Positions 45,779-61,983 are shown, counted from the first letter of the stretch. The stretch is DNA of 64,000 bases from Phycisphaerales bacterium (GCA_009781185.1 WQYP01000004.1:232-64231); one strand, 5' to 3'. Made by a program: numbers and translations. The notes: generated by a model from the letters alone, not told the origin.

Positions 45779-47599
45779 TTATGCAATGCCCTTGCTGCGG
45801 ACCGCAGCGCGAGGGTCAATCATCGCGGCACCGAAGTCATGGTAAACGCGCCAGTGTGCGGCGAGCGTATTGACATCGTGCTCGATCCCTTGGAACTCGA
45901 TGGTCGGACTTTGCTGGCCGTTGAGGAACGCCACCACCATCGCCGTGGCTGCCGGGGACGCGAACAAATACCAGTGGGCATTGCTGGTCTGTTTGCCGAA
46001 TTTCTGGGCGTTGGCCAATCGCGGTTCCACTTCCAGTTTCACCACGTTTCGCAGGCTGTTGCCGGTGGGCAAATCGACCTGGGCCATGATGTACTCGGAT
46101 TCCAGCAGCGATCTTGCCGTGGTCTCGAGCGCCGGTGGCACCAGCAGGACTGCCGGGCGGATGTCCAGATCGTTACCTTCATCGTCCCGCTGACTAATCA
46201 TCGCTTTGATCGCGTTGGACAGCGACCAAGTGCTGAGATTGGAGTCGGCACCGTCGATGTAGTTGCTGTTGGCTTTGCTGAAGAAGTTGCCCTCGTTCGC
46301 CAGCAGCACGCCGAACACGAGGTCGTTGAGCTTTCGCATCGCCGCCTTGCCCATCGCTGCCGACGCTTCGGCAAAGACGCCGAGGTCGTCGTTGATGAGA
46401 TCGCGGCGGTCGATGCCCAGCAGTTTGCCGTAGGTGTCGATCTGGTAGGACGCCAGCCATTCCTTGACGGTGCCGTGCTTGAGTTCGCCGCCCGGAGCGA
46501 CCTGTTCCAAACCGCCGACGAAGGAGGGGCGGATTGCGGTGTTGGTTTTGAAGTCGGCCACGGATCGGATCGCCGCGAATGAACGCCACGTCGCCGGTGC
46601 ATCGCTGTAGGCGTCCAACAAATTCTTGCTGGCCAGATCACCAAGCGCAACCGGCAGCGACATCGTGCTCAATGCCGCCTTTACCATCGCATCACGACCG
46701 ACGGGAATTTCCTGACCGTCGAGCGTCAACGCCATCCGGCACAAATCGAGACAGTGCGTAATGCCCAGGTCGTGAGCCTGCTGCAAAACATCGGACTTGA
46801 AATGTTTCTCGGCGGTTTTGCTCATCCCCATGCGAAAAGCCAACGCCGCTTCGATCACTTCGGTTGTTGCCGCCGGACGATACCCACCCGCCATCGGAGC
46901 CGTCGGTCGCGATGTCCGCAGAACCTCAAGTTCCGTCCTCGCCGCATCCCAACCATTGGACACCGCTTTGGCCGCGATCTCAGGATGCCGGGCCGTCAAC
47001 TTCATGATGCCCGCCACACGCACCCGCTCGGCAGCAAGAACATCATCGTCATCGACCACGCCACGACTGGCGGCGATAGCAACGCTGGTGCGACCGTCGC
47101 ACCCCAGCGTCACTACCGACACCTCCCGCAGCGTCCCCTTGGTCACGACCGTCAGCCCACCTTTTGGCGCAACGACAGTCCGACCATTGATCTCCATCTT
47201 TTCACCCGGAGCCAGGCGGACAGTTTCATCGGGCGCGACGCCGACGCTGGCCTGCAACGGGAATCCGTCGCGGGCCAGATCAAGCACCTTCCTCGCCGAC
47301 GCCGTCGAGCCGACAATACTACCAGCGACACGAAGTTGCCCGGCTTGCACCGCCGCCTCACCTTTGCCCAGCACATTGTCCAAACCTGTATCATGGTCCA
47401 CCAGCAGCGGAATCAATCCGCCACAATCCAGACCCGCGAGGTTGATGGCAATGTTCCCCCACCCCCCAACCCGCATGACACCGCCGGTATAAGCGACGAT
47501 GTTCACAGTAGGCTGCTTCACCCCCCCCTCCCTCTGCCCCGCCGCGATCTCAACCTTCGCAGCGGTCAGGACAAGTTCTTGTTCAATCATGGTCGTCAT
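45779..47599 (-). CDS. phage prohead protease (U35/HK97-type) fused to HK97-fold major capsid protein, copy 1
   Basis: N-terminal protease-like region (NIVAYTGG ... EVSVVTLGCDG). C-terminal MCP region (FKTNTAIRPSFVGG ... GELKHGT ... WRVYHDFGAAMIDPRAAVRSKG). Paralog of 59935..61983. Confidence 0.7.
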   Translation of the reverse strand: MTTMIEQELVLTAAKVEIAAGQREGGVKQPTVNIVAYTGGVMRVGGWGNIAINLAGLDCGGLIPLLVDHDTGLDNVLGKGEAAVQAGQLRVAGSIVGSTASARKVLDLARDGFPLQASVGVAPDETVRLAPGEKMEINGRTVVAPKGGLTVVTKGTLREVSVVTLGCDGRTSVAIAASRGVVDDDDVLAAERVRVAGIMKLTARHPEIAAKAVSNGWDAARTELEVLRTSRPTAPMAGGYRPAATTEVIEAALAFRMGMSKTAEKHFKSDVLQQAHDLGITHCLDLCRMALTLDGQEIPVGRDAMVKAALSTMSLPVALGDLASKNLLDAYSDAPATWRSFAAIRSVADFKTNTAIRPSFVGGLEQVAPGGELKHGTVKEWLASYQIDTYGKLLGIDRRDLINDDLGVFAEASAAMGKAAMRKLNDLVFGVLLANEGNFFSKANSNYIDGADSNLSTWSLSNAIKAMISQRDDEGNDLDIRPAVLLVPPALETTARSLLESEYIMAQVDLPTGNSLRNVVKLEVEPRLANAQKFGKQTSNAHWYLFASPAATAMVVAFLNGQQSPTIEFQGIEHDVNTLAAHWRVYHDFGAAMIDPRAAVRSKGIA

Positions 47600-48165
47600 C
47601 TATTTCCTCCTGTTGAAAAAGGATCAAAACCTGCTCGCAGTAAACCTGGCGCTAACAATCTCAACTCACGGCGGACGGAGCCTTCACTCATCCCCAACCG
47701 CCGAGCAGTTTCACTCAAATTACCTTTGCACTCGATCACTAAACGACAAAGCACCTTGCTTTCCTCGTCACTGATGTACTCCAAAATGTCATCGAGACTC
47801 CATCGGCTACGAGTCAGTTCCTTCGAGCGGTTCTTCGTCACCAGATGCTCTACAGGTTCTTTACCATCCATCGGTTCAGGGAATTGCTGGAACCGACGGG
47901 CCTGCTTCGCTTCCTGTTCGGTGACTTTCATCACCGCTCGTTGCACAACTTTGTAAATGAAAGTCTTCTCGCTTGCTCCTTGTGTTGGATCGTACTTCGG
48001 CGGCTTGCGGAGCAGACGCACTATCGTTTCCTGCACCACATCGTCGTAATCAACATGCTCGGGACAATACTTCTGGGCCGCTTGCAGGGCGACCGCCCTG
48101 GCGTACTCCAGAAGCTCCGGCGACAACACCCATTCGTTTTCTTTTTCGTTCGGTTCGGGAATCAT
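47596..48165 (-). CDS. sigma-70 family (ECF-like) RNA polymerase sigma factor
   Basis: Region 2 (YDDVVQETIVRLLRK) and region 4 HTH (LSETARRLGMSEGSVRRELR). ATGA overlap with the capsid-fusion gene. Confidence 0.65.
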   Translation of the reverse strand: MIPEPNEKENEWVLSPELLEYARAVALQAAQKYCPEHVDYDDVVQETIVRLLRKPPKYDPTQGASEKTFIYKVVQRAVMKVTEQEAKQARRFQQFPEPMDGKEPVEHLVTKNRSKELTRSRWSLDDILEYISDEESKVLCRLVIECKGNLSETARRLGMSEGSVRRELRLLAPGLLRAGFDPFSTGGNR

Positions 48166-48762
48166 TTACACCCCCTCGCCGCGCTCGAGCCGTGCCCGGA
48201 TGTCATCGCACAAGGTGAAGGTGATGATGGCCGGTGTATCGTCACGGGGCGGGTGCCGGTGCATGACGAAATACTGATCGTTGGCATTCACGCGACGCCC
48301 GTACCTCGCCGACTCGCGATCCGCTGCCTCCTGTAAAGGTCGGAGGAAGTCGGCATAGCTGCACCCCATCGCCTCGCACATCGCGGCATACGGCGTGAAC
48401 ATCCCGCATTCCTCAAAATAATTGGCAGCCGCCTCAACATCCATCTTTGACCATGCATCACGACTGGCCGGAGTCACGGTTCCGCCCTCGATCAGCACTT
48501 CCAGCATTTGCGGACGGCAGTCATAACCCCGCGACCGCAGGTGATTGGAAACAACCGTCAGTGCCATCGGGAACATTGCCCCAATCTCCAACGACGCCGC
48601 CTGCCGAAAGACGGGGTCCGCATTCCGATGCGGCTTGATCTTGAAATCCACATACTCCTCAAACGACAAACCAAATTTCATCATCGTGTAACCTCCAAAA
48701 AAGGGAAATGTTGTTTCGGGCACCACACCCGTATAACAACTTATTGCCCGGCCAAAGGCCAA
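48166..48762 (-). CDS. hypothetical protein
   Basis: ORF ends 1 nt before the sigma-factor start. Start may be the internal MMKF. Confidence 0.4.
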   Translation of the reverse strand: MAFGRAISCYTGVVPETTFPFFGGYTMMKFGLSFEEYVDFKIKPHRNADPVFRQAASLEIGAMFPMALTVVSNHLRSRGYDCRPQMLEVLIEGGTVTPASRDAWSKMDVEAAANYFEECGMFTPYAAMCEAMGCSYADFLRPLQEAADRESARYGRRVNANDQYFVMHRHPPRDDTPAIITFTLCDDIRARLERGEGV

Positions 48763-48830
48763 TTCGTAAACAATTTTGGAAAAAACTTAAAAAATGTTCT
48801 CGGAACATTCTCGGACGCAACATCCCAGCA

Positions 48831-50831
48831 TCACGCGGCTTCCCGAATAACGCCATCGCTCCAAGCAAAGTGAATCGCGCTCAGTCGGGTAAAGCGCCCT
48901 TCGGTGGCTTTGGCGATGCGGTCGGTGACGCCGCCTCCCCGCATGCCGGGGGCTTCCATTGCGTTGAAGGTGCCGTGGATGCCGATGGTTTTCTTTTGGG
49001 CCTGTTCAATCGTGGAACTCAAACCCTCCAAGTAATCCTGAATGGCAGGCGGGGGTTCGAGCCGATCCGGTCCCTGTGAATCCTTCATCTTCTTTTCGTC
49101 GTGGGCCTTGCCGATGGCGTCACGCCATTCCGCTCTCGCCTTGTCCAGTTCCTCATTGGACTTTTGAATCTTTTCCGCTTGCTCCTGTGCGAGTTCGTCC
49201 TCGGCATCCATCGCGGCCTGGCCGATCTGCGCCATGTTGTAGTTGTACGCATCATCCGCAGTTTTACGTTCCTGCTTTCGCTGATCTTCACGCTGTGCGA
49301 GAGCCTGTTTTTTCTGGGCCTCGATTTGGTTGTTCGTCTCCGCAAGTTCCTGATCCGCCATCTTTTTGGCGGCATCCACATCGAAACTGTCGTCGAACAG
49401 GCTCCACAATTCCAGCAGCCGTTTGGTCGTCCAGTTGATCGCGGTGTTCCACGCCTGCTGAAAGCCCGATGTAAAACTCGTCCACGTCTTCGACAAAAAT
49501 GCCGTCGTTTCGATCCACGCCGTTTCGAGCGAACTTCGGCAGATTTCCCACGCGGCCAGCGCTCCGTAAAACGCGCCTTGAATGATGTTGACGAACGAAC
49601 TTTTGAATTGAATCCACAAAGTTTCAAGAGCATTGATGCCTGTCTGCCATGCGACTTTGAGCGTCAGCCACAAAATCTTCGCCGCCAGCGCAATGTCGCC
49701 GGCAGCCAGAGCGTCGGCGATTCCGCCGAAGGCTTCGGTGGCGAATGAGGAGAGGTCGGCGAAGCGGTCGCCCAGCCAGGACAGAGCTTTCCCGCCCGCA
49801 CCCGAAGCATATATAAGGTATGCGCCAAGTGCGGCCATCGCCGCCACCACCATGCCGATGGGGGAGAGCAGCCAGGCGATGAGGCCGCCGAGCACACCGA
49901 TCACGGTGGAGACGACGCTGATGGTTGTGGCCAGCGCCGAGAAGATGCCGCCGAGGAACACGATTGTTTTGCCCAGTACGAGCAATGCCATGCCCGCCGC
50001 GATCACGCTGGCGGCGACTTTGAAAATCGTGACGATGAGTTCCTGGTTTTGCTTGACCCACGCGATGGCTTTGACGACGAGGTCGATGATGCGATTGGCG
50101 ATGTCTGTCAGCAGCGGAGCCACCGCTTCTCCCAGTGTTGCGCCAAGCTGCTTGAGCACGGCCCAGAGCGTGCTCAACGCCTCGGCCAACTTCACGCCAG
50201 TAGCAACACTCGTTTCCGACGCGGTGAGGCCGAGTTTGCGAGCCTCTTCCTGCATCGCTTCGATTCCCGCCGCGCCTCGGCTCATCATGGGCAGCAAATC
50301 CATGCCGGACCTGCCGAAGATCGCCATCGCCGTTGCCGCGCGAACGGCGGGGCTTTGAATGGCGGCGAGTTTGTCGGCGATCAGTTTGAATTGCTGATCC
50401 GGCGACAGTCCTCGCAGATCGTCGATGGTCAATCCCAACTGCGCGAGTGCCGCCGTCGCCGACTTTGATCCCGTGGCCGCTTGATAGATGGTTTTCTGCA
50501 TCTTCTTAATGCCGCCTTCCAGCGTCGCCATATCGGTTCCGGAGATGCTGGCGGCGTAACCCAACTCCGAAAGTGCTTCGACTGAGATGCCGGTTCGTTG
50601 GCTGAGCGTTTGAAGTTCCTTGCTTCCCGACGCGAAAACTTTGGCAAAACCGACCAGTGGCGCGGCGATGGCGGTGCCGATGGCGGCGAACTTCTTGCCG
50701 AGATCGGCGACAGAATCGCCAAACGCCTTGAGTTTCTTGCCGGCCTTCTGCAAACCCTTCACGAGCTTCTCGTCGTTGACGAGCAGTTCGATAAACGCGC
50801 TGCCAGCTTTGATGCCTTGGGGCGACCCCAT
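48831..50831 (-). CDS. phage tail tape measure protein
   Basis: 666 aa, Ala/Gly-rich helical protein with a central hydrophobic segment and long coiled coils. Located with the tail genes. Confidence 0.7.
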   Translation of the reverse strand: MGSPQGIKAGSAFIELLVNDEKLVKGLQKAGKKLKAFGDSVADLGKKFAAIGTAIAAPLVGFAKVFASGSKELQTLSQRTGISVEALSELGYAASISGTDMATLEGGIKKMQKTIYQAATGSKSATAALAQLGLTIDDLRGLSPDQQFKLIADKLAAIQSPAVRAATAMAIFGRSGMDLLPMMSRGAAGIEAMQEEARKLGLTASETSVATGVKLAEALSTLWAVLKQLGATLGEAVAPLLTDIANRIIDLVVKAIAWVKQNQELIVTIFKVAASVIAAGMALLVLGKTIVFLGGIFSALATTISVVSTVIGVLGGLIAWLLSPIGMVVAAMAALGAYLIYASGAGGKALSWLGDRFADLSSFATEAFGGIADALAAGDIALAAKILWLTLKVAWQTGINALETLWIQFKSSFVNIIQGAFYGALAAWEICRSSLETAWIETTAFLSKTWTSFTSGFQQAWNTAINWTTKRLLELWSLFDDSFDVDAAKKMADQELAETNNQIEAQKKQALAQREDQRKQERKTADDAYNYNMAQIGQAAMDAEDELAQEQAEKIQKSNEELDKARAEWRDAIGKAHDEKKMKDSQGPDRLEPPPAIQDYLEGLSSTIEQAQKKTIGIHGTFNAMEAPGMRGGGVTDRIAKATEGRFTRLSAIHFAWSDGVIREAA

Positions 50832-50834
50832 CGC

Positions 50835-51365
50835 TCACACTCTTTCCTTCAGCAACGTGGCGACGCGGTCCACGATAGCGGTGATGACCGTCTTACTATG
50901 GCACAGCGAATTGTGGTTGGTGTTGGCTACCACGATAGGATCGGGACCGCCGTTGATGGTGGCAGGAAAAACGGGAAACGAGTTGGCGGCCCGGAAGATA
51001 TCGCAGATTTTCGGAGCGGCATTTCCTCGCGGATAAGCCAATGTCTGCGACCAGAGCGGCTCATAAGCCACTGGATCAATCAACACCAGATAATCCACAC
51101 AGATATTCCAGTGAGCAACGGTGATGCATGATTCGAGCACACGTTGAGCACCGAACGAGTGTCCGACGAGCACCACTGTATTTGCCGGGAAAAGGCGAAC
51201 AGTCAATTCGACATCAGCGCGGAACTGGTCAAACACCCGTGACGGCGTCCAAACATAAACGCCATCCATCCGCGAGAGCGCCTTGGCGATGTCGCTAGTC
51301 TGGGGGCTTCCCAGCCCCCCCAGCACCACCGCAAACACCCGATCATCTGAATCACTTGTCATCAT
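50835..51365 (-). CDS. alpha/beta-hydrolase-fold protein (GxSxG lipase/esterase motif GHSFG)
   Basis: VVLVGHSFGAQRV nucleophile elbow. Confidence 0.55.
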   Translation of the reverse strand: MMTSDSDDRVFAVVLGGLGSPQTSDIAKALSRMDGVYVWTPSRVFDQFRADVELTVRLFPANTVVLVGHSFGAQRVLESCITVAHWNICVDYLVLIDPVAYEPLWSQTLAYPRGNAAPKICDIFRAANSFPVFPATINGGPDPIVVANTNHNSLCHSKTVITAIVDRVATLLKERV

Positions 51366-51387
51366 GTCAAAATCCGTCTTTATCTAC

Positions 51388-51433
51388 GTCCGTGTCTGTC
51401 TGTGCGGGGGGGGGCTGTCTGTGGTTAATTCCC
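51388..51433 (-). promoter_or_regulatory. promoter-like motif CGTGTCTGTCTGTG..CTGTCTGTGGTTAATTCCC upstream of the hydrolase gene; second copy at 52168..52207
   Basis: Two similar GTCTGTCTGTGG-YT-MATTCCC elements, each 25-110 bp upstream of a minus-strand gene start. Confidence 0.4.
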
Positions 51434-51628: not shown

Positions 51629-51693
51629 GTTGATTCCTTTTGTTAAAATCCATCCGGCGGTGTCCGCCGCCGCTTGTCTGCCTGCCTCACCGC

Positions 51694-52095: not shown

Positions 52096-52167
52096 AAGAT
52101 TTCCTTTCCATCATTAAAAAATATCCGCGTCCATCCGCGTGCATCCGCGGCCATTTACGTTCCCCCC

Positions 52168-52207: not shown

Positions 52208-52211
52208 ATCG

Positions 52212-53361: not shown

Positions 53362-53820
53362 TTACGTTCCGCCGACAGTCTTCCAGACGGGTGGGTTGGT
53401 CGAGTACGTGGGCTTGGCGGTGACTTTGACGCTCAAGGCTTCTTCGAGCGGTTCATCGCGGGAGAAGTCAGTAATCATGCAATCCGCCCACAAGCCTTGG
53501 CTGCCGGTGGAAGTGGCACCGGTGATGGGGCCGTCCATCGCGGCGATGCCGATGATGGAGTTGCCGAAGTAGGCGTCTTTGATCGCTGTAAACCCCGTGT
53601 CGCTTGTGTCCCAGACCATCTCGAATTCGATGCTGCCTTCCTTGAGCGTGCCGGCGGTGGCTTTCCAGCCGCTATTGGCGCGGGTGGTCACATCCGCTTC
53701 GCCTTTGGTCAGGTTCAGCGTGACGTTTTTGACGTTGGTCAGTTCCAACCAGGTGGGCGTGCCGCCGATGCCGGCGACACAATAATACAGGCGAGCATCT
53801 AATCCGAGTCTTACACTCAT
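53362..53820 (-). CDS. phage major tail (tube) protein
   Basis: 152 aa, beta-rich. Position and size match TP901/phi13-type major tail proteins. Confidence 0.55.
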   Translation of the reverse strand: MSVRLGLDARLYYCVAGIGGTPTWLELTNVKNVTLNLTKGEADVTTRANSGWKATAGTLKEGSIEFEMVWDTSDTGFTAIKDAYFGNSIIGIAAMDGPITGATSTGSQGLWADCMITDFSRDEPLEEALSVKVTAKPTYSTNPPVWKTVGGT

Positions 53821-53839: not shown

Positions 53840-54511
53840 TTATGAGTATTGAATGGCATCTGGCGCAATGGCCACCGGCACTTGGCCACTTTTATGTCGC
53901 TGCAAGTATGCAATTGCCCGATGAAGCACCTCGATATCTTCGCTCGCGTTGCCGATCACCAGATTGCAAGCTCGATGAACGATGCCACGAACAACGCCGG
54001 TAGAATGATCATGGTCGATGGTTTGCCATTTCATGGGCAGTGGTCGTTCGCACAGGGCACAGCAATACTTCTGTCGTGCCAGCATTTGCCGGTAGTCATC
54101 TGGTGTGATGCCGTATTGTGGGCACTTATATCGCACGGCGCGATCCCACAGTCGCTGTTGATTGGCGTCACACCATTGAGCCTTTCGCTTTTTCCTGCAC
54201 GGACGGCAATCACGAGCAAAATAATCTTTGCCACAACTGCGGCGGACCGGAAAATCGGCCAATGGTTTTTCCGTATGGCACCGGCTACAAACCAGTTGAC
54301 CTCGCTGTCGAATCTCTTGCCATTGGCTTTCGGAAAGTTTGGGTGTTCGGTGGCGATTTCCGGGATGCATCCTGCGATACAAGAGTGTGTTCAACTCGGA
54401 ATAACATTGTTTGCAGCGACTCAGGGGCCGCGAGTCGGAGATGGAACGACGCGGGAATGCCGAGATCGGCTTCTCGTTCCTGCATCGGCTGCATCGCTTT
54501 ACAGCTTCCAT
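53840..54511 (-). CDS. HNH-type endonuclease, endonuclease VII family
   Basis: CALCERPL ... IDHDHSTGVVRGIVHRACNLVIG, plus multiple Cys pairs. Confidence 0.65.
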   Translation of the reverse strand: MEAVKRCSRCRNEKPISAFPRRSISDSRPLSRCKQCYSELNTLLYRRMHPGNRHRTPKLSESQWQEIRQRGQLVCSRCHTEKPLADFPVRRSCGKDYFARDCRPCRKKRKAQWCDANQQRLWDRAVRYKCPQYGITPDDYRQMLARQKYCCALCERPLPMKWQTIDHDHSTGVVRGIVHRACNLVIGNASEDIEVLHRAIAYLQRHKSGQVPVAIAPDAIQYS

Positions 54512-55093: not shown

Positions 55094-55918
55094 CTACTTC
55101 GCAGCCGCTTCCTTGGCGATGTCCGCTTCGAGCAGTTGGAGTTTGAGGTCGAGGTCGCCGGCCAGCTTGCCCCATTGATCGTTGTACTTGGCATCCGAGC
55201 CGATGGGGGGGATCGTCTTTCGGAAGTCCCGCAGCAGGTCGAGCACCATCTTTTTCGTTGTGGTGGTGCCGCTCCAGTCGGTGATGGAAGTCAGAATGTC
55301 CGCGATGGTTCGCACGTGATTCGGGAAGAGCGGACGCGAGGTTTTGAGGAAAGTGGAACTGAATTCAAACAACTTATCCTTACGCCCCAAATCCGCCGCC
55401 GCCTGAATGGTTTGGACCAGGATGCCGAGTTCTTCGGCTCCATTCACCAGCTTCTCACGGTCGTTCGTTGCGATGTACACACGCCGCAGCAATTCTTTTT
55501 GACGGGTTTTGTCTTGCAGCGCCTTGGCGATGGATTCCGCTGCCGGGTAGTCGCGGAACGTGTACGTCAGCAGCAGGCCTTTTTCAAAAGCGAGCCGCGA
55601 CGTGTTCTTCACACCGACCTTGGCGGCGTCGGTATCCAATTGATCCAGATATTGCTTCGATGTGGATATCTTTTCAAACTCGTACATCAGCTTCGCTTTG
55701 CGAAGCGTCCAGTCGATGCGGGTGTCGATGTCGGCGAAGCTGTTGGGCACATTGGCGTCCAACCACGCGAGCTGTTCATCCACGGATTTGTCGGCGGGGA
55801 AACCGTCCCAGGACCATTTCTTCGGGGTGTCTTCTTTGGCGGGTGCCGTCGTTTGCGCAACCACAACAGCACCGAAAGCAAACATCACAAGCGCCGCGCC
55901 CAAAATAGCCTTCTTCAT
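55094..55918 (-). CDS. secreted hypothetical protein
   Basis: Signal peptide MKKAILGAALVMFAFGAVVVA. Confidence 0.5.
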   Translation of the reverse strand: MKKAILGAALVMFAFGAVVVAQTTAPAKEDTPKKWSWDGFPADKSVDEQLAWLDANVPNSFADIDTRIDWTLRKAKLMYEFEKISTSKQYLDQLDTDAAKVGVKNTSRLAFEKGLLLTYTFRDYPAAESIAKALQDKTRQKELLRRVYIATNDREKLVNGAEELGILVQTIQAAADLGRKDKLFEFSSTFLKTSRPLFPNHVRTIADILTSITDWSGTTTTKKMVLDLLRDFRKTIPPIGSDAKYNDQWGKLAGDLDLKLQLLEADIAKEAAAK

Positions 55919-57165
55919 TGTTTTTCCTTCATGTTAGAGACAGGTTGACTCCACTTCGTCCTACGCAGGTCCGAAGTGCCGCGACCGTTGGTCGCTTTTT
56001 CCGTCAAATCACTGGAGTCGCTGAAATCCCCGGCGTCGGTGATGGTGAGTGACGCGCCGGCGGCAAAGTATCTTTCCTCGATTGCTTTGCAAATTGCACG
56101 GTTCGCTTCTTTGGTTCTGTTGTTCGGCCTTGCCGTCAAATAGTAGTAGCGTTCGCCAACGACCTGCACGGCGATCTTCGTTGTTTCTGTTCGCTTCAAG
56201 AACCGCATGGCGGCGTCGACGTTGACGGTGCTTACACCGAAGTTGAACGCGACAATTCCGGAGATTCCTTCCGGGGCAATTTTCCAAACGGCGGCCTTCG
56301 ATGCTTCCGAGTGGAAGAATTGCAGATTGCCCAGCACGGGGATGTTGGGATTTTGCCCGCGCACCGCCGAGAGTGTATAGCCGACGAACTGGGCGTCGGG
56401 TTTGTAGTTGAGCGTTCGCTTGTTGCTATAAAGAACTGTTCCGGGATTTGTTTGTCGCCAGCCGAGGATGAAGCCGTCGCATTGTTTTGCGAGATGCTGC
56501 AAGCCGTTGAAGTAATCGACCGGGTCCATTGCGTACATGTCGGTTGCATCTATAGAACCGCCAAAGGTGAACCATACTTTGAAGCCTTTGGATTTTGCGT
56601 AGGCGATGGCATTGTCGAAGTTTTTCGGATCGTCCTGCATGTACCAGGCGAGCAGCAATGCGTTGTATTTTTGCCCGGCGAAGTAATCCAACTCGTGCGT
56701 GAAGTTTTCGTATTCCGCGTCGCTGGTCGGTGCCCGCAGTTCCGACACCATCCGCAAGCCCGTCGGCAATGGCACCTCGGTGATCGGCGCGTATGTGCGA
56801 GAGTAAACTTCTTTCCATTTGTCGAGCGTATCGACGTTTGTCGGAAGGAAGAAGCGCCGCCGTGCAATGTCGCTCTCTTTTTCAAAAACTCCTGCGTAAC
56901 GAATGAACCGGGCCACCTGCTCGGGCAGATGATCGAGATTGAACGGTGAGCCGACAAAAGCGGCCTTCGATGTTTCAAAGCGAACCGGCCTCGGCGTGAA
57001 TACGACTTGTTCGCTGAAAAATTTCACGGACGACGGCGCGAACGCTGGCGTCGTCGCAGAGAACGATGCCGTCGTCGGCGTGAACGAGACTGTCACGGGC
57101 TGGAACGTCTGCGAGAAACCAACCGTGCTACACGCCAAAACTAAAGCTGCAATTATGTATCTCAT
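55915..57165 (-). CDS. secreted hypothetical protein (416 aa); contains the second copy of the 32-bp repeat
   Basis: Signal peptide MRYIIAALVLACSTVGFS. Confidence 0.5.
   Translation of the reverse strand: MRYIIAALVLACSTVGFSQTFQPVTVSFTPTTASFSATTPAFAPSSVKFFSEQVVFTPRPVRFETSKAAFVGSPFNLDHLPEQVARFIRYAGVFEKESDIARRRFFLPTNVDTLDKWKEVYSRTYAPITEVPLPTGLRMVSELRAPTSDAEYENFTHELDYFAGQKYNALLLAWYMQDDPKNFDNAIAYAKSKGFKVWFTFGGSIDATDMYAMDPVDYFNGLQHLAKQCDGFILGWRQTNPGTVLYSNKRTLNYKPDAQFVGYTLSAVRGQNPNIPVLGNLQFFHSEASKAAVWKIAPEGISGIVAFNFGVSTVNVDAAMRFLKRTETTKIAVQVVGERYYYLTARPNNRTKEANRAICKAIEERYFAAGASLTITDAGDFSDSSDLTEKATNGRGTSDLRRTKWSQPVSNMKEKQ
56096..56127. repeat. second exact copy of the 32-bp sequence GCACGGTTCGCTTCTTTGGTTCTGTTGTTCGG (first at 7940..7971)
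   Basis: Exact match. Lies inside CDS 55915..57165. Confidence 0.7.
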
Positions 57166-57755
57166 TGCATCTTCCTCTTCTCGCCAATGACGAACTCGAC
57201 GATATCTTTGGGATGCCAGGTTGTGGGCAGGCCGGTCGCGGCGTCGTTGCCGTTCACATCGGGGTTTTCATTCCGGTTTCCGTTTTCGTAGACGACGCCT
57301 TCTACCGTGACGGTGGATGTATAGATACGCATGATGACCATGTCGCCGGGCTTGGCTTCCGCCGGATCGAAACTATCCACTCCAAACAAAGCGATGGATC
57401 GCTTCGGAAAGTTGGGATTCCACTTTTGGTTTTGAATCCTTGCGGCCACCGTCCAATTCGCGGGGTACGCATTCGGCGGCGTCCTGATCTTGTACTCCAT
57501 AATGAGATCGGCCAGCGGAAGAAGCGGACTGCCTTTGGACAACTGCGCTGGCGTGGTGAAGTATCGCATCGTCACGGGCAGATTGGCCGTGAAGCCGTTG
57601 TGGTAGATGCCATCATTGATCGTATGCACATGATTGTTAATCATATGCAGGTAGTTATTTTCAAAGGCAAGTGGCGTCGGGCACGCGAATAACGCCGAGA
57701 TGCCCATCGTTAGCGCCAGGCCGAAAATGGCGAGTGTGCTTTTCCAGAAGCTCAT
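57162..57755 (-). CDS. secreted hypothetical protein
   Basis: Signal peptide MSFWKSTLAIFGLALTMGISALFA. Confidence 0.5.
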   Translation of the reverse strand: MSFWKSTLAIFGLALTMGISALFACPTPLAFENNYLHMINNHVHTINDGIYHNGFTANLPVTMRYFTTPAQLSKGSPLLPLADLIMEYKIRTPPNAYPANWTVAARIQNQKWNPNFPKRSIALFGVDSFDPAEAKPGDMVIMRIYTSTVTVEGVVYENGNRNENPDVNGNDAATGLPTTWHPKDIVEFVIGEKRKMQ

Positions 57756-58168
57756 TATTGCAGTGCTCCCACAAAGATGCCGCCTTTGACGTTCGTGTCG
57801 TCTTGGCCCTCCTGGGTGAACCGCCAGCGATAGAACGCTTCATTAAAGTTGCTGCCGATGAGTGCTCGGGCGTTGATGATGAGCGGCTGGCCACGAAATG
57901 GCGGCATCAACCCGCCGGTACCGATTTCGCGCCAGAACAAAAATCCCTCGCCGTCGAAAACTCGAATCCATCCCAGTTGCTCCGGCGTCGCCGTTTTCGT
58001 ATCAAGCGAGAAAAAGATATTTTCAAAATCCCGATCGCTCGCGAACTCGACCTGCACGTTCATCGGAACATCGGTATTGCTCGGAAACGGCACCATCACC
58101 GTAATATCACGATCTTGCGATACCGCTGGTCCTGCACCAGAACATGGCCTGAATCGGTAAGGCATCAT
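57755..58168 (-). CDS. hypothetical phage protein
   Basis: ATG at 58168 overlaps the upstream stop (TAATG). Confidence 0.35.
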   Translation of the reverse strand: MMPYRFRPCSGAGPAVSQDRDITVMVPFPSNTDVPMNVQVEFASDRDFENIFFSLDTKTATPEQLGWIRVFDGEGFLFWREIGTGGLMPPFRGQPLIINARALIGSNFNEAFYRWRFTQEGQDDTNVKGGIFVGALQ

Positions 58169-58425
58169 TACGTTCCTCCGACCACAGTCACGACATCGCC
58201 GGGCGTGCCTTTGACGAAAATTTCCGAGAGGTCCACACAAACGCAGCGATGCCATTCCGCCGCCAGGTGCGACCAGGGCACATCCTTGCCATCGGTCCCG
58301 CGAAAAAACACCGGCCCGACATTGCTCGGCGGCACATTGATATCCACGCTGGCCACCAACGACTGCTTCGACAACGGCTGGTATTCCCCGGAAAGATCAA
58401 CACGTAACATGACGAAGTTTTTCAT
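58168..58425 (-). CDS. hypothetical phage protein
   Basis: 85-aa ORF coupled to the downstream gene. Confidence 0.35.
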   Translation of the reverse strand: MKNFVMLRVDLSGEYQPLSKQSLVASVDINVPPSNVGPVFFRGTDGKDVPWSHLAAEWHRCVCVDLSEIFVKGTPGDVVTVVGGT

Positions 58426-58433
58426 AGATTGAT

Positions 58434-58865
58434 TTACCTCATAACGCGGTACGTGAAAGTCAGAACACTCGTGAAAACTTGCTTACTTTGCAGGTGATCG
58501 GGCGAGTAGATCGGCTCGTTTTCAGTTTTTACCCACGCTGCCGATCCATCGCCGGGCAGGTCCAAACGCCGTAAACGCAACTCGTCGGCGATCCGCTGGA
58601 CCTTTGCCATCAACGCGTCGAGCGCCTCCGTATCATCGGGATCGATTTTCTGCTGCACACCAACATCGACGGACACGTCATGCTGATTAACGTTCCGACC
58701 CAGGCTGGTGATCTCAATGCCTCGCGGCACCACCGACACCCGCAATGTCTTGAGTTCCGCGAGATCAAATTCGGGCCGATAGGCCCGCACCGCGTCGAGC
58801 TTGAGCGGCTCCGCTTTGAGCGCCGCAACAATCGCGTCCGCAACATCAATGGGCAGTGACAACAT
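58434..58865 (-). CDS. hypothetical phage head-tail region protein
   Basis: Position between the capsid and tail genes. Confidence 0.4.
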   Translation of the reverse strand: MLSLPIDVADAIVAALKAEPLKLDAVRAYRPEFDLAELKTLRVSVVPRGIEITSLGRNVNQHDVSVDVGVQQKIDPDDTEALDALMAKVQRIADELRLRRLDLPGDGSAAWVKTENEPIYSPDHLQSKQVFTSVLTFTYRVMR

Positions 58866-58866
58866 C

Positions 58867-59109
58867 TCAATGCATCCAAAAGACCTGAAAGAACTGCATC
58901 GCGTCGGAAGCCAGAATGCTCACGAGCGCTCCGATCACAATCCAGGTGACACGTTTGCGCCACGCTTCGTTTTGCTCCAGGCGGTCGAGACGCAACTGAA
59001 TGCCTGGTTTGCCGTTGCCGCGAATCGCTTCGTCCAGGTGTTCGAGTTTGCGGTGGATCGCACAAAATTCTCCCCGGCATGTCATGTCATAATTGGGACA
59101 CTCGTTCAT
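58867..59109 (-). CDS. small protein with C-terminal TM helix
   Basis: ATG at 59109 overlaps the upstream stop (ATGA). Confidence 0.35.
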   Translation of the reverse strand: MNECPNYDMTCRGEFCAIHRKLEHLDEAIRGNGKPGIQLRLDRLEQNEAWRKRVTWIVIGALVSILASDAMQFFQVFWMH

Positions 59110-59516
59110 GGATTCTCCACATCTATTTGCTTGGTGTGTATCCGCAACGTCTGCCGATACGCATCGCTCCATCGCCAGCACGGTTCATCACCGGGACCAA
59201 CCACCTCGTACACAAACACCTGCCCCCCCCCAGTACCACTGGTTTCCCGAATCCGGTCTCCGCGTCGCGGCACTATCGGCGTTCCACCGATCATCAAATC
59301 CGCCGCCAAGATCAGATAATCCCGGCTCTCGATTCGCAGCAGAGCGCCGCCACCGTCATCAATCTGAAACACCGTGGTGCCGATCGTTGCTGGTACTTCC
59401 ACCGTCCCTCCCCCTTCACCGCCCCCCCCGCCTCGCTGGTAGACCACGGGCTGAGTCATAAACTTCGTCCGCTGGTCTTCCAGCCAGGCCATGCCTTTCT
59501 GCAGGAGGTCAACCAT
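59106..59516 (-). CDS. hypothetical phage head-tail protein (Gly-rich)
   Basis: 136-aa ORF. Confidence 0.4.
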   Translation of the reverse strand: MVDLLQKGMAWLEDQRTKFMTQPVVYQRGGGGGEGGGTVEVPATIGTTVFQIDDGGGALLRIESRDYLILAADLMIGGTPIVPRRGDRIRETSGTGGGQVFVYEVVGPGDEPCWRWSDAYRQTLRIHTKQIDVENP

Positions 59517-59529
59517 CTCGGCTCGCTCC

Positions 59530-59859
59530 TCACTGCGTCAATCGCACCCGCACCGTGATATCAGTATCGGTGGCGGCTTGAATGGTTTTGCCGATGAGCT
59601 TGTTGCCGGTGGCGGTGGCCGTAGCTTGCTGTGCGGCCACATTCCAATACACGCTGACGCCCACGCCGATGGCGCTACTGGCAGCCGTGGCTTTTGGAAA
59701 ATCAAAAACGCCAGAGACCGCCAAGCTGCCCTGCGTATTGGCCGGAATGGGCCGCTTGGTGACGCCCACCAATTCCCCCTGCACAACCACCGCACCCGCC
59801 GCCACATCAACACTGGGCGTATAGTCAATGTTGTCACCAGCTTGCACAAACACAGCCAT
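59530..59859 (-). CDS. small phage head-associated protein (DUF2190-like)
   Basis: ATG at 59859 with RBS GGAGAG. Immediately after the capsid gene. Confidence 0.4.
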   Translation of the reverse strand: MAVFVQAGDNIDYTPSVDVAAGAVVVQGELVGVTKRPIPANTQGSLAVSGVFDFPKATAASSAIGVGVSVYWNVAAQQATATATGNKLIGKTIQAATDTDITVRVRLTQ

Positions 59860-59934
59860 AATGAAGCTCTCCAAAAAATCACCTTGTCACCTTGTCACCC
59901 GTTCACCTTGTCACGCCCCCCCCTCCTCCTCCCG

Positions 59935-61983
59935 TTACGCTTCCCCTTTGCTGCGAACCCCGGCCCGTGGGTCTTGCAGTGCGACGCCGAAGTCGTGATA
60001 GCCGCGCATCTTCACACCCAGCACATTGAAATCCGCCTCGGCGGTTTCGATGGTCGGAGACTCCTGCCCGTTCAAAAACGCGACTTCAATCAGCGGCAAA
60101 TCGTTGGGGTCGGCGAGCAGATACCACGCCTTTTGGCTGTTGCCGATGTACTTGCTGTTGCCGAGATATCGAGAGACTTCCACGCGATATTTTCCTTGGT
60201 GTGGGTTGGCGATGGGGTATTTGTTGTTGGCGGTGGTGTCGCGCAGTTCCATGCTCTTGTAAAGTTGCGAGCCGATGGCCGAGAGAGTCGTGGGAACCAG
60301 CATGATCGCGGGCATGATGCCGATGGGTTTGCCGTCGGAGTCCACTTGATCCATGAAAGAGGTTTCAGCTTTGGTCAACCCGTCGATGTTGAGGATCGTA
60401 TCCGCGCCCACCAGCAGGTTCTTGTTGGCGGCGGTGAAGAATGCGGCGTTATTCAAGAAGATCGTCCAGAATACGTCGTTGATCTTGAGACCCGAGCCGC
60501 GCCCGAGTTTTCGCGGCACTGTCGTGATCGCTCCGAGGTCGTCGTTGATGGTGTCGCGACGGTCGATGGTGAGCATCAAACCGTAGGTGTCCGCCTTGTT
60601 GGTGTAGGTCTCGTTGCCCAGCGTCCCGTGCTTGAGTTCGCCACCGGGGGCAACCTTTTCATATTGGTCCGTGCCGATGAGACGGTAACTGGTGACGGTC
60701 TTGAAGTCGTTGACGCTGCGAACGGCACAGATGTTCCGCCATGTGCGCTCGACCGAAAAGAAGCCTTCGAGCAACGCCTTGTTGGCGACATTCGACAGGA
60801 TTCCGCCGATGTCGATGGTACTCCACCCCGCCATTACCTGATCCTGCGAAGCGAAAGCCATCCGCATGATGGTGTGGGGATCGGAACGGAAGCTGTAGCC
60901 GCCGTAACCATTCGCTCTCGCCGCTTCCAAAAACAATTCCTGCAACCCAATCCCGTTACGGAACCGCTTGTCGGCAGCCTCCAGCGCCTGCTCGTCGCAA
61001 TGTTCCTCGGGCTTTGCGATCCCCGCCGACAGCAGACACGCCGCCTCAAGCACCTCCTGATTCACGGCACCGGGGCCAGAGATGGAGAATCCCATCGGTG
61101 CTCCTCCTCGCACCGCACCGGTCTTGGGCCGTCCCTCTCGCAGAACCTCCAGTTCCGTCTTCGTGGCATCCCAATTCTCGGCGATGGCTTTCGCTTCGAT
61201 CTCCGCAAAGTGCCGCCCGCCCGCCCCCCCCGGAGCGGACGGCGCACAAAGTTTGCGAATGGTGGCGACGCGATTGGTTTCCGCCAGCGCCTCGGCACGA
61301 ATGTCCGCCGCCGTGGGCGTGGGTGCCGCTTGGATCGCCGGGACCGGCGCGACAGTGGTCGAAGTTTCCGAAGCCGTCACGGTGGTGGCCGTTTCCATGA
61401 TATTTGTCTCCTGCTGAGGACGGCTCGCGGCCACCTTCGCGGAGGTATTGCCATCAGCGCCCAGGTCCACAAAACTGATCTCACCGAGCGTCGCCTTGCG
61501 AACGACGTTCACCGGGCCATGAAATAGCCACCCATTGACTTGTGTCTTCTGGCCGTCTTTGACAAACTCGAAATCATCGACGCTCGCACCGATACTGGCC
61601 TGCCAGGGGAATCCATTCTTGCCCGACGTGACAATCTCCTTCGCCGCCGCCGTGTCCCGCGACACCACCCCCGTCGCGATAAGCTGTCCGTTCTCGATAC
61701 GGATCATGTCGGTGTGTCCGACGCCGGCGGCGGCATCGTGGCCGAAACGGATGGGACGGTTCTGGCTGGGGATCGTCAGTCCCGCCAGATCGATGACCAC
61801 CGGATGTCGCCAGCCAGCGAGGCGCATCTGCCCGCCGGTATAGGCGACCATGCGAAATTTCGGCAGTCCCCCCCCTTGCGTTGCGCCACCGACTTCCGCG
61901 CCAGCGGCGGCTTCAATCTGAAAACTCGCCGTCAGCGTCAACGGCCCCGCTTCAGGCTGCTCGTTTTGAGGTGTTTTGGTCAT
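59935..61983 (-). CDS. phage prohead protease (U35/HK97-type) fused to HK97-fold major capsid protein, copy 2
   Basis: N-terminal MVAYTGGQMRLAGW ... PIRFGHD ... EISFVDLGADGNTSA. C-terminal FKTVTSYRLIGT ... GELKHGT ... GYHDFGVALQDPRAGVRSKG. Confidence 0.75.
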   Translation of the reverse strand: MTKTPQNEQPEAGPLTLTASFQIEAAAGAEVGGATQGGGLPKFRMVAYTGGQMRLAGWRHPVVIDLAGLTIPSQNRPIRFGHDAAAGVGHTDMIRIENGQLIATGVVSRDTAAAKEIVTSGKNGFPWQASIGASVDDFEFVKDGQKTQVNGWLFHGPVNVVRKATLGEISFVDLGADGNTSAKVAASRPQQETNIMETATTVTASETSTTVAPVPAIQAAPTPTAADIRAEALAETNRVATIRKLCAPSAPGGAGGRHFAEIEAKAIAENWDATKTELEVLREGRPKTGAVRGGAPMGFSISGPGAVNQEVLEAACLLSAGIAKPEEHCDEQALEAADKRFRNGIGLQELFLEAARANGYGGYSFRSDPHTIMRMAFASQDQVMAGWSTIDIGGILSNVANKALLEGFFSVERTWRNICAVRSVNDFKTVTSYRLIGTDQYEKVAPGGELKHGTLGNETYTNKADTYGLMLTIDRRDTINDDLGAITTVPRKLGRGSGLKINDVFWTIFLNNAAFFTAANKNLLVGADTILNIDGLTKAETSFMDQVDSDGKPIGIMPAIMLVPTTLSAIGSQLYKSMELRDTTANNKYPIANPHQGKYRVEVSRYLGNSKYIGNSQKAWYLLADPNDLPLIEVAFLNGQESPTIETAEADFNVLGVKMRGYHDFGVALQDPRAGVRSKGEA

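Follow-up and report, generated by a model that had tools for sequence, protein, structure and literature searches.

Our analysis reports on a nested insertion in a 64,000-nucleotide stretch of DNA from a Phycisphaerales bacterium (GCA_009781185.1 WQYP01000004.1:232-64231; the window), in which an element of about 10 kb sits inside the tape-measure protein (TMP) gene of a prophage and brings a capsid gene of its own. The host replicon is a Phycisphaerales genome and the prophage is a lambda-like siphovirus. As judged from its sequence, the inserted segment is a site-specific integrative element mobilised by a large serine recombinase, and its nesting within the prophage is essentially certain. 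We propose that it is probably a capsid-encoding phage satellite embedded in its helper, and it is one member of a widespread, apparently undescribed family in Planctomycetota. An earlier note on this DNA had correctly placed the portal, copy 2, major tail, tape-measure, hypothetical, sigma, copy 1 and AAA_25 genes on the minus strand, and had read them as one late operon of one phage with two capsid genes; copy 1, the sigma factor, the hypothetical gene and the AAA_25 gene instead make up part of a separate element. The recombinase and the distal tail genes (37961-38770 and beyond), which lay outside the range of that note, explain the two-capsid arrangement.

The element interrupts the tape-measure gene

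The boundaries of the element are fixed at base level by two close relatives of the prophage (L089 and L090) in which the site is empty. On the TMP side the window equals the empty site up to a GAAG tetranucleotide and then diverges; on the recombinase side the match begins at GAAGAA and continues across the TGA and the start ATG of the tail gene that follows, so that both junctions lie at a common GAAG. The insertion point is codon 644 of the prophage TMP gene, which places the element inside the 3' end of that gene. All 98 related phage loci in IMG/VR have the TMP gene followed directly by homologs of the 269-aa and 284-aa tail proteins, and each has a single capsid gene of the copy 2 type, with the copy 1 type in none of the 98. 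Host genes begin below about 31.1 kb.

The TMP gene of the window is therefore chimeric: codons 1-644 are phage, and all its IMG/VR relatives align only to residues 1-644, while the final 22 codons (48834-48898) come from the element end and are unrelated to the native tail. The last 21 codons and stop of the recombinase gene are in turn the native TMP 3' end, an in-frame tail swap. Joining the element ends gives GGGTAAAGCGC-TCAGAAGG-GCGCTTTACCC, a perfect 11-bp inverted repeat around the GAAG crossover, which is as expected for a serine-recombinase attP; the two attL/attR-type junctions have only GAAG in common. In this computed reconstruction both open reading frames are restored in frame and attP falls within the recombinase gene, at its 3' end, so that on integration the recombinase and the tape-measure protein exchange their C-terminal tails. 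The same computation shows that, once the element is integrated, the distal tail genes are separated from the TMP gene by 10 kb and a strong terminator. The joined palindrome was absent from the IMG/VR and JGI metagenome contigs searched.

These data bear on the possibility that a single phage truly has two capsid genes within one late operon. The common strand, the lack of large gaps and the absence of a predicted terminator between the TMP gene and the gene for the 172-aa protein (hyp172) would fit such an operon, but the empty sites in 98 relatives, the precise junctions, the attP palindrome and the independent occurrence of the element elsewhere leave it with next to no probability. An att junction at 47.6-48.8 kb, which the earlier note would have taken as the mark of two separately integrated phages, is essentially what we find, together with a second junction at the recombinase end, although the inserted DNA is not a second tandem prophage.

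Table 1. Coordinates of the prophage, the nested element and their features in the window.
Feature	Position	Strand	Basis
Portal (lambda family), helper prophage	61952-63457	-	Pfam Phage_portal_2 E 1e-56; relatives in IMG/VR phage contigs 60-67% identical
Copy 2 prohead-protease/scaffold/major capsid protein (MCP) fusion, 682 aa, helper prophage	59935-61983	-	Phage_capsid_4 E 6.5e-43; phrog_4523 'major head and protease protein' E 9e-72
Major tail protein, helper	53362-53820	-	
Tape-measure (TMP) gene, helper, chimeric	48831-50831	-	TMP PHROGs, down to E 2e-42
TMP-side junction, GAAG core	48899-48902	-	Empty-site comparison (L089/L090)
Nested integrative element, 10,066 bp (one core copy counted)	38833-48898	-	Empty-site alignment
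Promoter-like motif T[AG]CGAAT-N13-GG[AC]AATAAG	48741-48767	-	Alignment, 16 loci
hyp172, conserved 172-aa protein, predicted MerR-type winged-helix DNA-binding fold	48166-48684	-	
ECF-like two-domain sigma factor, 189 aa	47596-48165	-	Sigma70_r2 E 1.4e-11; r4 E 1e-3; phrog_1740 'RNA polymerase sigma factor'
Copy 1 protease/scaffold/MCP fusion (MCP1), 606 aa, element	45779-47599	-	Phage_capsid_4 E 1.5e-42
Intrinsic-terminator-like hairpin	45699-45736	-	15-bp stem, 9 G-C pairs, then T-run
Small conserved ORF (74-108 aa)	45432-45758	-	tblastn relatives, same position, 25 loci
AAA_25 replicase/helicase, 548 aa	43785-45431	-	Pfam AAA_25 E 4e-44; phrog_906 'DNA polymerase/primase' E 3e-54
135-aa ORF	43191-43598	-	56%-identical relative in L159
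26-nt block identical to helper early-region site (~69904-69929, beyond the window)	43069-43094	-	blastn and alignment
Two low-G+C cargo ORFs, 214 and 198 aa, predicted membrane proteins	41580-42807	-	G+C dips to ~0.50
HARE-HTH protein, 134 aa, divergent from recombinase gene	40792-41196	+	Pfam HARE-HTH E 4e-11
Large serine recombinase, 607 aa from M42	38771-40594	-	Resolvase E 8e-23, Recombinase E 2e-25, Zn_ribbon_recom E 6e-11
Recombinase-side junction, GAAG core	38833-38836	-	Empty-site match from GAAGAA onward
269-aa tail gene, helper	37961-38770	-	
284-aa tail gene, helper	36923-37777	-	
Remaining helper tail genes, cut off from TMP gene by the element	31867-38770	-	

Gene content of the element

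The core genes of the element all lie on the minus strand, co-oriented with the phage late genes, with the exception of the HARE-HTH gene. The capsid operon opens with hyp172, which had been called at 48166-48762 and probably starts at M27. The start of the sigma gene abuts the hyp172 stop and its own stop overlaps the MCP1 start (ATGA), and the three genes form a translationally coupled unit ending at a strong terminator; this hairpin, which the earlier note had also recognised after copy 1, is the best terminator-like site in 38-51 kb. The region 2 match of the sigma factor is above the Pfam cut-off and its region 4 match is below it; among 25 relatives Sigma70_r2 is found in all, the r4 model in 9 and r4_2 in 5, a pattern that points to an ECF-like (group 4) factor with regions 2 and 4 only. 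The promoter-like motif upstream of hyp172 is followed by a G+C hairpin and then an AAGGAG ribosome-binding site. It has a single match in the window. In its strict form it is found in 25 of 73 loci, each time as one copy at a matching relative position, with no further copy within +-10 kb.

Between the MCP and replicase genes lies the small conserved ORF, which has no match in Pfam, PHROG or PADLOC; the replicase position is taken in other family members by a PrimPol/AAA_25 protein. The two cargo ORFs have no Pfam or PADLOC matches. A repressor/operator module had been suggested around the 135-aa ORF, for which Pfam and PHROG profile searches gave no significant family match; the HARE-HTH gene was found instead, adjoining the recombinase gene in an arrangement kept across the family. 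The recombinase itself has the Resolvase catalytic domain, the recombinase domain and the zinc ribbon of the large serine type. Pfam and PHROG profile searches found no portal, terminase or tail genes in the element, and about 90 relatives likewise gave no portal or terminase match; neither a small terminase, nor a cos/pac site, nor other known hijacking genes were recognised in the element. The 172-aa protein was considered as a possible small terminase (TerS) or Rpp-like packaging redirector. The DNA common to element and helper consists of homologous coding stretches and the one 26-nt block, which is unique to this contig among 225 loci.

The two protease-capsid fusions

Copies 1 and 2 share 35% identity along their entire length (BLASTP E 2e-102), which is lower than the 40-50% estimated previously, and both are full-length and intact with no frameshifts. 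In both copies the N-terminal domain has the Assemblin/T4 gp21 protease fold, and an invariant His/Ser pair (H69/S118 in copy 1, H82/S130 in copy 2) is kept throughout both MCP clades. The conservation of this pair, and a spacing like that in HK97 gp4, for which we take the catalytic residues to be His65/Ser114, suggest that these residues are catalytic; a search for a solved homolog in support of this assignment found none. The capsid domains match Phage_capsid_4 in both copies (E ~1e-42), with a further match to Mu-like_gpT, and the HK97-fold assignment rests on these profiles because the AF2 model of the capsid part is of low confidence.

In a neighbor-joining tree the two copies fall into separate clades. 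The copy 1 clade (97 sequences) takes in every one of the 92 sequences that have element context, and no member has a portal gene upstream, while the copy 2 clade (51 sequences) takes in every one of the 25 fusions that follow a portal gene. The copy 1 clade is kept whatever the surrounding structural genes, be they lambda-type or SU10/SPP1-type. We assign the copy 1 capsid/protease gene to the nested element and not to the phage.

A family of related elements and its insertion sites

The core order of hyp172 winged-helix (wHTH) protein, optional sigma factor, protease-MCP, small ORF, AAA_25/PrimPol replicase, HARE-HTH and large serine recombinase is found in about 90 other Planctomycetota loci. 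MCP1 has more than 1500 homologs, the best 120 of which are 51-87% identical, and 491 loci in GTDB species representatives are nearly all from Phycisphaerae or other Planctomycetota. All family and phage data come from metagenome-assembled genomes and metagenome contigs. A single odd contig (L210) hints at exchange between the element and a full-size phage.

These comparisons speak to whether the element could be a second, related prophage that entered the first, in nested or tandem form, and has since decayed to a remnant. Its MCP, HARE-HTH and AAA_25 proteins are indeed distant paralogs of helper proteins (35% identity, 64% over 75 aa of the domain only, and 27%, respectively). However, all of its ORFs, copy 1 included, are intact and full-length relative to their counterparts, the same compact 8-12 kb core recurs in the same order across species and sites, an adjacent portal gene is never seen in the MCP1 clade, and the element ends form a clean attP; random decay would not produce these features. 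The remnant reading is largely refuted and retains very little probability.

Several family members sit in the late genes of prophages related to the helper: three split TerL at about codon 304 (L191, L212 and L215), one splits the portal gene at about codon 350 (L213), and another lies at the 3' end of the MCP gene (L205), each co-oriented with the late genes. In at least 14 genomes family members split an SU10-type MCP gene at profile position ~53, in the orientation opposite to the target gene; this target cluster lacks terminase and tail genes and is therefore not an obvious helper.

Such insertions could also act as a switch of gene integrity, in which the element keeps prophage late genes (the TMP/tail operon, TerL, portal or MCP) broken until excision and so controls or disables prophage production, the capsid gene being incidental. 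The splitting of essential late genes in several relatives, the unrelated replacement tail of the TMP and the strong terminator upstream of the distal tail genes all accord with this, and helper-embedded PICIs (HE-PICIs) have been interpreted likewise (PMC10111431). As a full account we consider it improbable: it leaves the conserved core of protease-MCP, 172-aa wHTH protein and replicase in about 90 loci unexplained, and it is compatible with a satellite rather than exclusive of one.

Many other family members occupy ordinary places in the chromosome and lack phage genes within 10 kb, so embedding is not obligatory, and the cargo next to the core in other members includes restriction-modification genes, ThsB-TIR, McrBC, YopA and DUF1016. 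Together with the lack of a portal, terminase or recognisable packaging gene, this might describe an integrative defence or interference island whose capsid-protease acts against infecting phages, as a decoy or by poisoning assembly, or builds shells not meant for its own spread, and whose variable cargo adds defence. The decoy suggested by the earlier note survives in this form, as a use of capsid protein against phages, and not as the best-supported reading. We hold a defence island to be unlikely, since the complete protease-scaffold-MCP architecture with its invariant catalytic pair goes beyond the requirements of a decoy, the element, like known satellites, carries a replicase and a recombinase of its own, and the cargo in the window has no PADLOC matches; satellites commonly carry defence cargo, and cargo therefore does not discriminate. 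A further suggestion, of a domesticated system resembling a gene-transfer agent, found no support.

A model for the proposed embedded satellite

The best-supported explanation is thus that of a satellite-like or capsid-redirecting element piggy-backing on the phage, which the earlier note had itself raised, and we consider it probable that the element behaves as a helper-embedded satellite. Upon induction, either helper late transcription or the element's own promoter-like motif and sigma factor would turn on the hyp172-sigma-MCP1 unit, and the recombinase would excise the element, restoring the TMP gene and the tail operon. The replicase may then amplify the 10-kb circle, while MCP1, with its own protease and scaffold segment, would build element capsids that are probably smaller than those of the helper; portal, terminase and tails for these particles would be supplied by the helper. 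The repeated nesting in late genes of helper relatives (TerL, portal, MCP and TMP) argues for this model, as do the parts of the element, which are intact and look functional with respect to fold, His/Ser pair, sigma factor, translational coupling and promoter-like motif. HE-PICIs offer a precedent for the concept (PMC10111431). On the other side stand the non-obligatory embedding, the lack of a recognised packaging or hijacking gene and the failure to find attP in contigs; moreover, capsid proteins of the one MCP1 clade would have to fit different portals, of lambda type and of SU10/SPP1 type.

Comparison with known systems

Serine-recombinase elements that split a gene and restore it by precise excision are known from the B. 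subtilis skin element, SPbeta and the Listeria comK phage ('active lysogeny' or regulated gene integrity); these interrupt host genes and are themselves (defective) prophages. The element described here likewise uses a large serine recombinase to split a gene, but the gene that it breaks is a late gene of a prophage, and it is itself a mini-element carrying one capsid gene. Phage P4 encodes a primase-helicase and a transcriptional activator of late genes, Delta, whose role is analogous to that of the satellite-borne sigma factor. To our knowledge neither P4 nor the Vibrio PLEs encode an MCP, and we know of no PLE embedded in a prophage. For both excision and integration, PLEs rely on a large serine recombinase (PMC6002521). 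Neither PLEs nor P4 have a sequence relationship to the element.

Parallels also exist among satellites that carry capsid genes. The element encodes its own HK97-fold capsid protein and protease, as capsid-forming PICIs (cf-PICIs) reportedly do while taking some virion parts from the helper. Whereas the genes of cf-PICIs are said to cover everything needed for head formation and packaging (portal, head-tail connectors and terminase/HNH included) but no tail, the element has the protease-MCP fusion only. MCP1 is also reminiscent of SaPIbov5 Ccm, reportedly a satellite paralog of the helper HK97-fold MCP that alters capsid assembly. Ccm is said to lack a protease domain and to co-assemble with the helper MCP; MCP1, in contrast, is a complete protease-scaffold-MCP unit whose clade is kept independently of the neighbouring phage type, which argues that it may form shells autonomously.

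A further parallel is with the HE-PICIs, which use many late-gene targets (terminase, portal, capsid and tail) within one lineage, have off-target chromosomal copies, often carry a capsid gene and do not functionally replace the target gene, a state termed 'regulated gene integrity' (Tommasini, Mageeney & Williams 2023, PMC10111431). The window element similarly lies inside a helper late gene, at TMP codon 644, with empty sites in relatives and its key satellite genes co-oriented with the interrupted gene. The integrases of HE-PICIs are tyrosine integrases of a single clade, accompanied by AlpA; these satellites have the gene zones of PICIs (Bro-N proteins, PICI primase) and are found in Enterobacteria with lambdoid helpers (PMC10111431). 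Pfam and PHROG profile searches gave no match to AlpA, HTH_17 or Bro-N in the element and no homology of its core genes to PICI genes, and its integrase is not of the HE-PICI tyrosine clade. In the Planctomycetota family the recombinases are of the large serine type, encoded by a gene that spans attP, and the elements carry a sigma factor, a fused protease-MCP, the 172-aa wHTH protein and a HARE-HTH protein. The best reading is that this family is convergent with the enterobacterial HE-PICIs and is built from different genes.

Gene content of the late region

The window lies within the ENA metagenome contig ERZ27257292:k141_657946 (79,131 bp; record coordinate = window coordinate + 249), assigned at NCBI to a Phycisphaerales MAG, and metagenome assemblies form the basis of the data throughout. 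The genes that the earlier note listed, from a portal gene to two fusions of a prohead protease with a major capsid protein (MCP), are all present on the minus strand in the order it gave. Its central observation stands, because the two fusions align end to end (E 2e-102); their pairwise identity is 35%, and not the 40-50% it had estimated by eye. A 135-aa ORF and two low-G+C membrane-protein ORFs sit below the AAA_25 gene. Tail-like genes continue past the 269-aa gene to ~31.9 kb, with host genes (among them ABC permeases and binding proteins) below. The tail module of the prophage, here called the helper, is cut in two by the block carrying copy 1.

Features of the late region and the nested block (window coordinates)
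Feature	Position	Strand	Remarks
Portal gene, lambda-family	61952-63457	minus	
Protease-MCP fusion copy 2 (MCP2), 682 aa	59935-61983	minus	followed by head-tail genes
Major tail protein gene	53362-53820	minus	
Tape-measure protein (TMP) gene	48831-50831	minus	followed by a hypothetical gene
Sigma factor gene	47596-48165	minus	
Protease-MCP fusion copy 1 (MCP1), 606 aa	45779-47599	minus	
Terminator-like hairpin, strong	45736-45699	minus	
AAA_25 protein gene	43785-45431	minus	preceded by a small ORF
HARE-HTH gene	40792-41196	plus	
Large serine recombinase gene	38771-40594		Resolvase, Recombinase and Zn-ribbon domains
269-aa gene	37961-38770		ATG abuts the recombinase stop codon

On the same contig, outside the window, genes for a GpA-type large terminase and a ParB-methylase lie upstream of the portal gene, and the helper also encodes a second HARE-HTH protein, a PrimPol/AAA_25 replicase and a DEAD helicase there; with terminase and replicase genes on one contig, the helper therefore has its own packaging and replication genes. 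At ~9.1 kb, its capsid-to-TMP interval exceeds that of most relatives (~4 kb). Probable morons occupy the additional DNA (50835-51365, 53840-54511 and 55094-57755): an Endonuclease VII/HNH gene, a hydrolase-like gene and three ORFs that lack family matches and have signal-peptide-like N-termini. In the host part of the window, two low-G+C islands (17000-20500 and 25500-29300; 0.37-0.45 vs ~0.56 elsewhere) contain ORFs mostly lacking a Pfam match, and a fragment-like 342-aa match to the alanyl-tRNA synthetase family lies in one of them (27144-28172).

A serine-recombinase element nested in the tape-measure gene

Comparison with uninterrupted relatives indicates that the copy 1 block is almost certainly a serine-recombinase element nested in the TMP gene of the helper. 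The 269-aa gene has 127 relatives in IMG/VR and the TMP has 37; in the 98 IMG/VR loci that have both genes the two are adjacent, with a gap of 66-141 nt in 92 and of ~560-630 nt in six. Each of these 98 loci has one MCP2-type fusion and none has an MCP1-type gene. In every TMP relative in IMG/VR the match is confined to residues 1-644 of the 666-aa TMP of the window. The empty site could be resolved to the base in two close relatives (IMGVR_UViG_2820189034; TMP 85% identical): the window follows it as far as GCCACC GAAG (48902-48899), diverges, and matches again from GAAG AAACCGCC (38836-38833 onward), past the TGA and into the ATG that opens the 269-aa gene. The insert measures 10,066 bp (38833-48898).

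When joined, the ends of the element read TTGGGTAAAGCGC TCAGAAGG GCGCTTTACCCGA, a perfect 11-bp inverted repeat flanking the crossover, which is the form expected of a serine-recombinase attP. As the empty-site alignment had fixed the junctions independently, this palindrome constitutes separate evidence. The predicted attP junction (38837 to 48898) is GGGTAAAGCGCTCAGAAGGGCGCTTTACCC and the predicted restored TMP junction (48903 to 38832) is GCCACCGAAGAAACCGCC. The proposal in the earlier note that a single phage carries two capsid genes in one late operon is thereby refuted, since copy 1 belongs to a separate, nested element. A search of IMG/VR and JGI metagenome contigs for excised circles, using the joined palindrome GGGTAAAGCGC-N8-GCGCTTTACCC, returned no match. 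Among other members, L213 has a plausible 13-bp pair of attP-like inverted repeats at its ends; those of L003, L205 and L212 are ambiguous, and for this reason terminal repeats of other members are not used as evidence here.

The crossover falls in the same frame in the TMP and recombinase genes, so integration exchanges protein tails: the last 22 residues of the integrated TMP come from the element (GRFTRLSAIHFAWSDGVIREAA), while the C-terminal tail of the integrated recombinase is the native TMP tail (ETAKNTKKLVDQGNDEAEFD). Excision would yield a 664-aa TMP and a 609-aa recombinase with its own tail. Sequence analysis further shows that, once integrated, the element separates the distal tail genes from the TMP gene by 10 kb that include a terminator. 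The element contains a replicase, a set of regulators and a complete capsid-building gene, and lacks portal, terminase and tail genes. A pure gene-integrity switch and a decayed nested prophage are both weaker explanations than the defence or interference island considered below.

The capsid operon

The gene for the 172-aa protein, the sigma gene and the MCP1 gene are translationally coupled, with the stop codon of the first abutting the start of the second and the stop codon of the second overlapping the start of the third. Region 2 of the sigma protein is clear, and was matched in all 25 relatives tested; region 4 is weaker. Upstream of the operon lies the motif T[AG]CGAAT-N13-GG[AC]AATAAG (48741-48767), followed by a hairpin and a ribosome-binding site. 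In its strict form, the motif occurs in 25 of 73 loci searched over ±10 kb, once per locus, at a constant position and nowhere else. There is no terminator-like site between the TMP gene and the gene for the 172-aa protein; the strongest in the region comes after MCP1.

Pfam, PHROG and PADLOC gave no match for the 172-aa protein, the small ORF, the 135-aa ORF or the two cargo ORFs. Among PDB sequences, profile searches with the 172-aa protein and with the protease domain found no match, and no significant match came from a BFVD fold search with the 172-aa model. The AF2 model of full-length MCP1 is poor (pLDDT 58), its usable part being the protease domain only.

A search for a cos/pac-like segment common to element and helper, as in 11capE, one of the helper-embedded PICIs (HE-PICIs), found just diverged coding homology and one unexplained 26-nt block. 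This block, TTTTTGTTTGTTGCGCGTAGCGAACA, occurs exactly at 43069-43094 (minus) and in L002 at ~3529-3554 (~69904-69929, outside the window). Both sites are intergenic, one in the element and one among the early genes of the helper, both are preceded by a similar stem-like stretch, and no copy occurs in the remaining 223 loci. The block could serve both as an operator, origin or packaging signal, or be the trace of a recent exchange.

Distribution of the element family

Homologs of copy 1 in metagenomes number more than 1500 at E <= 1e-10, the best 120 of which are 51-87% identical and far closer to it than copy 2 is. Scanning one genome per GTDB species gave 491 loci, the best 80 of which come nearly all from MAGs of Phycisphaerae or other Planctomycetota; several MAGs contain more than one copy (two or three), and the isolate ZRK34 accounts for one locus. 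In a neighbor-joining tree of 148 full-length fusions, copy 1 falls in a clade of 97 with all 92 element-context sequences, none of them preceded by a portal gene, and copy 2 falls in a clade of 51 with all 25 fusions that have a lambda-type portal gene immediately before them.

The conserved order is 172-aa protein, sigma, protease-MCP, small ORF, AAA_25 or PrimPol/AAA_25 replicase, usually a HARE-HTH protein, and large serine recombinase. About half of the loci encode sigma; in members that do not, a distantly related ~180-aa protein lies immediately upstream of the MCP gene (E 9e-7). Variable cargo, mostly upstream of the 172-aa gene, includes restriction-modification systems, ThsB-TIR, McrBC and methylases. 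The chief alternative to a satellite is an island for defence or interference that would not use its capsid protein for its own transfer.

Three relatives are of separate note. The cultured isolate Planctomycetales bacterium ZRK34 carries a member (L199, CP050848.1, 4067-15062) with a 639-aa MCP fusion, an AAA_25/DUF669 replicase, two serine recombinase genes and a TMP-like fragment near; its downstream recombinase, just a 306-aa ORF, may be broken. IMGVR_UViG_3300037189_020839 (L217, 9542 bp) is apparently circular, with an 87-bp terminal repeat; its MCP1-like fusion is more distant (37-48% identical) and is accompanied by genes for a tyrosine integrase and a DUF3987/Toprim primase. This is a comparable mini-element of capsid, replicase and integrase with another integrase type. 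The phage-like contig IMGVR_UViG_3300028840_005165 (L210, 794-14587) has an MCP1-type fusion at the head-gene position, preceded by a gene like that for the 172-aa protein and followed by head-tail genes, a TMP gene and a homolog of the 269-aa gene; no portal, terminase or serine recombinase gene was seen on it. The contig may derive from an embedded composite by recombination or deletion, or may reflect capsid gene exchange between satellite and phage.

Insertion targets

Relatives of the helper have been struck in several late genes, always with the element co-oriented: in TerL near codon 304 (L191, L212 and L215), in the portal gene near codon 350 (L213), in the last codons of an MCP2-type gene (L205) and, in the window, in the TMP gene. 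At TerL, in-frame recombinase-TerL ORFs (TerL residues ~304-760) are found at 6901-10056 of L191 (1051 aa), 14887-18039 of L212 and 5040-8192 of L215, and the recombinase is predicted to be fused to the terminase nuclease domain in the integrated state; an in-frame tail swap of this type is also seen in the window on a smaller scale. Across the family, recombinase ORFs run 5-480 codons past the conserved region into neighbouring DNA, which fits an attP within the recombinase 3' end. In L201 (14775-17699) this extension covers 399 codons of a DNA methylase gene, which itself also has an intein-splicing-domain match. An MCP2-type phage capsid gene accompanies an MCP1-type element in the IMG/VR contigs L029/L205 (IMGVR_UViG_3300026519_000539), L206, L208, L209 and L211, with the junction mapped for L205; in L211 a C-terminal piece of an MCP2-type gene immediately follows MCP1.

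A further target, an SU10-type MCP gene adjoining an SPP1-type portal gene, is split at Pfam profile position ~53 in 14 GTDB loci and in L226/L227, with the element in the opposite orientation. That this target represents a full helper prophage was rejected, since a complete genome shows a ~7-kb portal-capsid cluster without terminase or tail genes. This cluster, in the complete Phycisphaeraceae genome CP054178.1 (L227, 1648-5744 and 17719-19922) and also in L003 and 13 further loci, comprises the SPP1-type portal gene, a 145-aa gene, the SU10-type MCP gene and four more ORFs, with an adjoining LexA-like repressor (HTH_3 + Peptidase_S24) and host genes on either side; possible identities for it are a satellite that itself forms capsids, a cluster of GTA type and a conserved remnant. 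L187 has two serine recombinase genes and SPP1-type portal halves in opposite orientations (3459-5582 and 15179-18349), an arrangement that points to an inversion or to two insertions, either nested or adjacent. At least 10 other loci have ordinary host neighbours (aldehyde dehydrogenase, signal peptidase II, glutamate dehydrogenase, sulfatase, LVIVD). A solely prophage-embedded family was rejected, many members being flanked by ordinary host genes.

Proposed model of the element life cycle

In the proposed model, the capsid operon would be switched on late, triggered by read-through from the late operon of the helper, by the motif and sigma factor of the element itself, or by both. The recombinase would cut out the element and so repair the helper, the excised circle would replicate, and MCP1 would build capsids for the 10-kb genome, with portal, terminase and tails supplied by the helper. 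We consider this full satellite scenario to have a slightly better than even chance of being correct.

A broader reading, which we regard as evenly balanced, would make the family a new class of satellite, the first in Planctomycetota/PVC. Its members would be capsid-only, with a single, self-sufficient protease-scaffold-MCP gene and a sigma factor of their own, and would spread by serine-recombinase insertion into helper terminase, portal, capsid and TMP genes. On portals of the helper they would assemble capsids of their own, probably of small size, and excision would gate the tail and packaging genes of the helper; this helper-embedded life style would have been invented independently and be convergent with that of enterobacterial PICIs.

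The apparent anomaly of two capsid genes is accounted for by a precise and testable nested-element model. The family is large and, so far as the searchable literature shows, undescribed, in a phylum whose phage-satellite biology is almost blank; in full-text literature searches, no publication dealt with satellites of Planctomycetota or with elements of this kind from the phylum. If the satellite reading is true, late-gene embedding has evolved at least two times with unrelated recombinases and gene sets, which would argue for a general and successful strategy. The one-gene capsid module offers a minimal system in which to study capsid size control, and the family provides satellite-borne sigma factors with a conserved candidate promoter. 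Its serine recombinases, with defined attP/attB pairs that include in-frame tail swaps, are potential genome-engineering tools.

Comparison with known satellites

The likeness to the Ccm of SaPIbov5 is limited to a satellite-borne paralog of a capsid protein, and the element is not a capsid-forming PICI (cf-PICI), since genes for portal, connector and terminase are all absent from it. Its configuration matches in several respects that of the HE-PICIs, for which a logic of repair by excision and use of helper parts has already been proposed (PMC10111431). Shared features are embedding in late genes, co-orientation, a range of late-gene targets, off-target chromosomal copies, and a lost target sequence that is not replaced (PMC10111431). 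Even so, the family does not belong to the HE-PICIs, because its integrase is of the serine and not the tyrosine type, it lacks AlpA and the PICI gene zones, and it resides in a different phylum. The helper-embedded life style appears to have been re-invented with another tool kit, which includes a sigma factor carried by the satellite and a capsid module of one gene.
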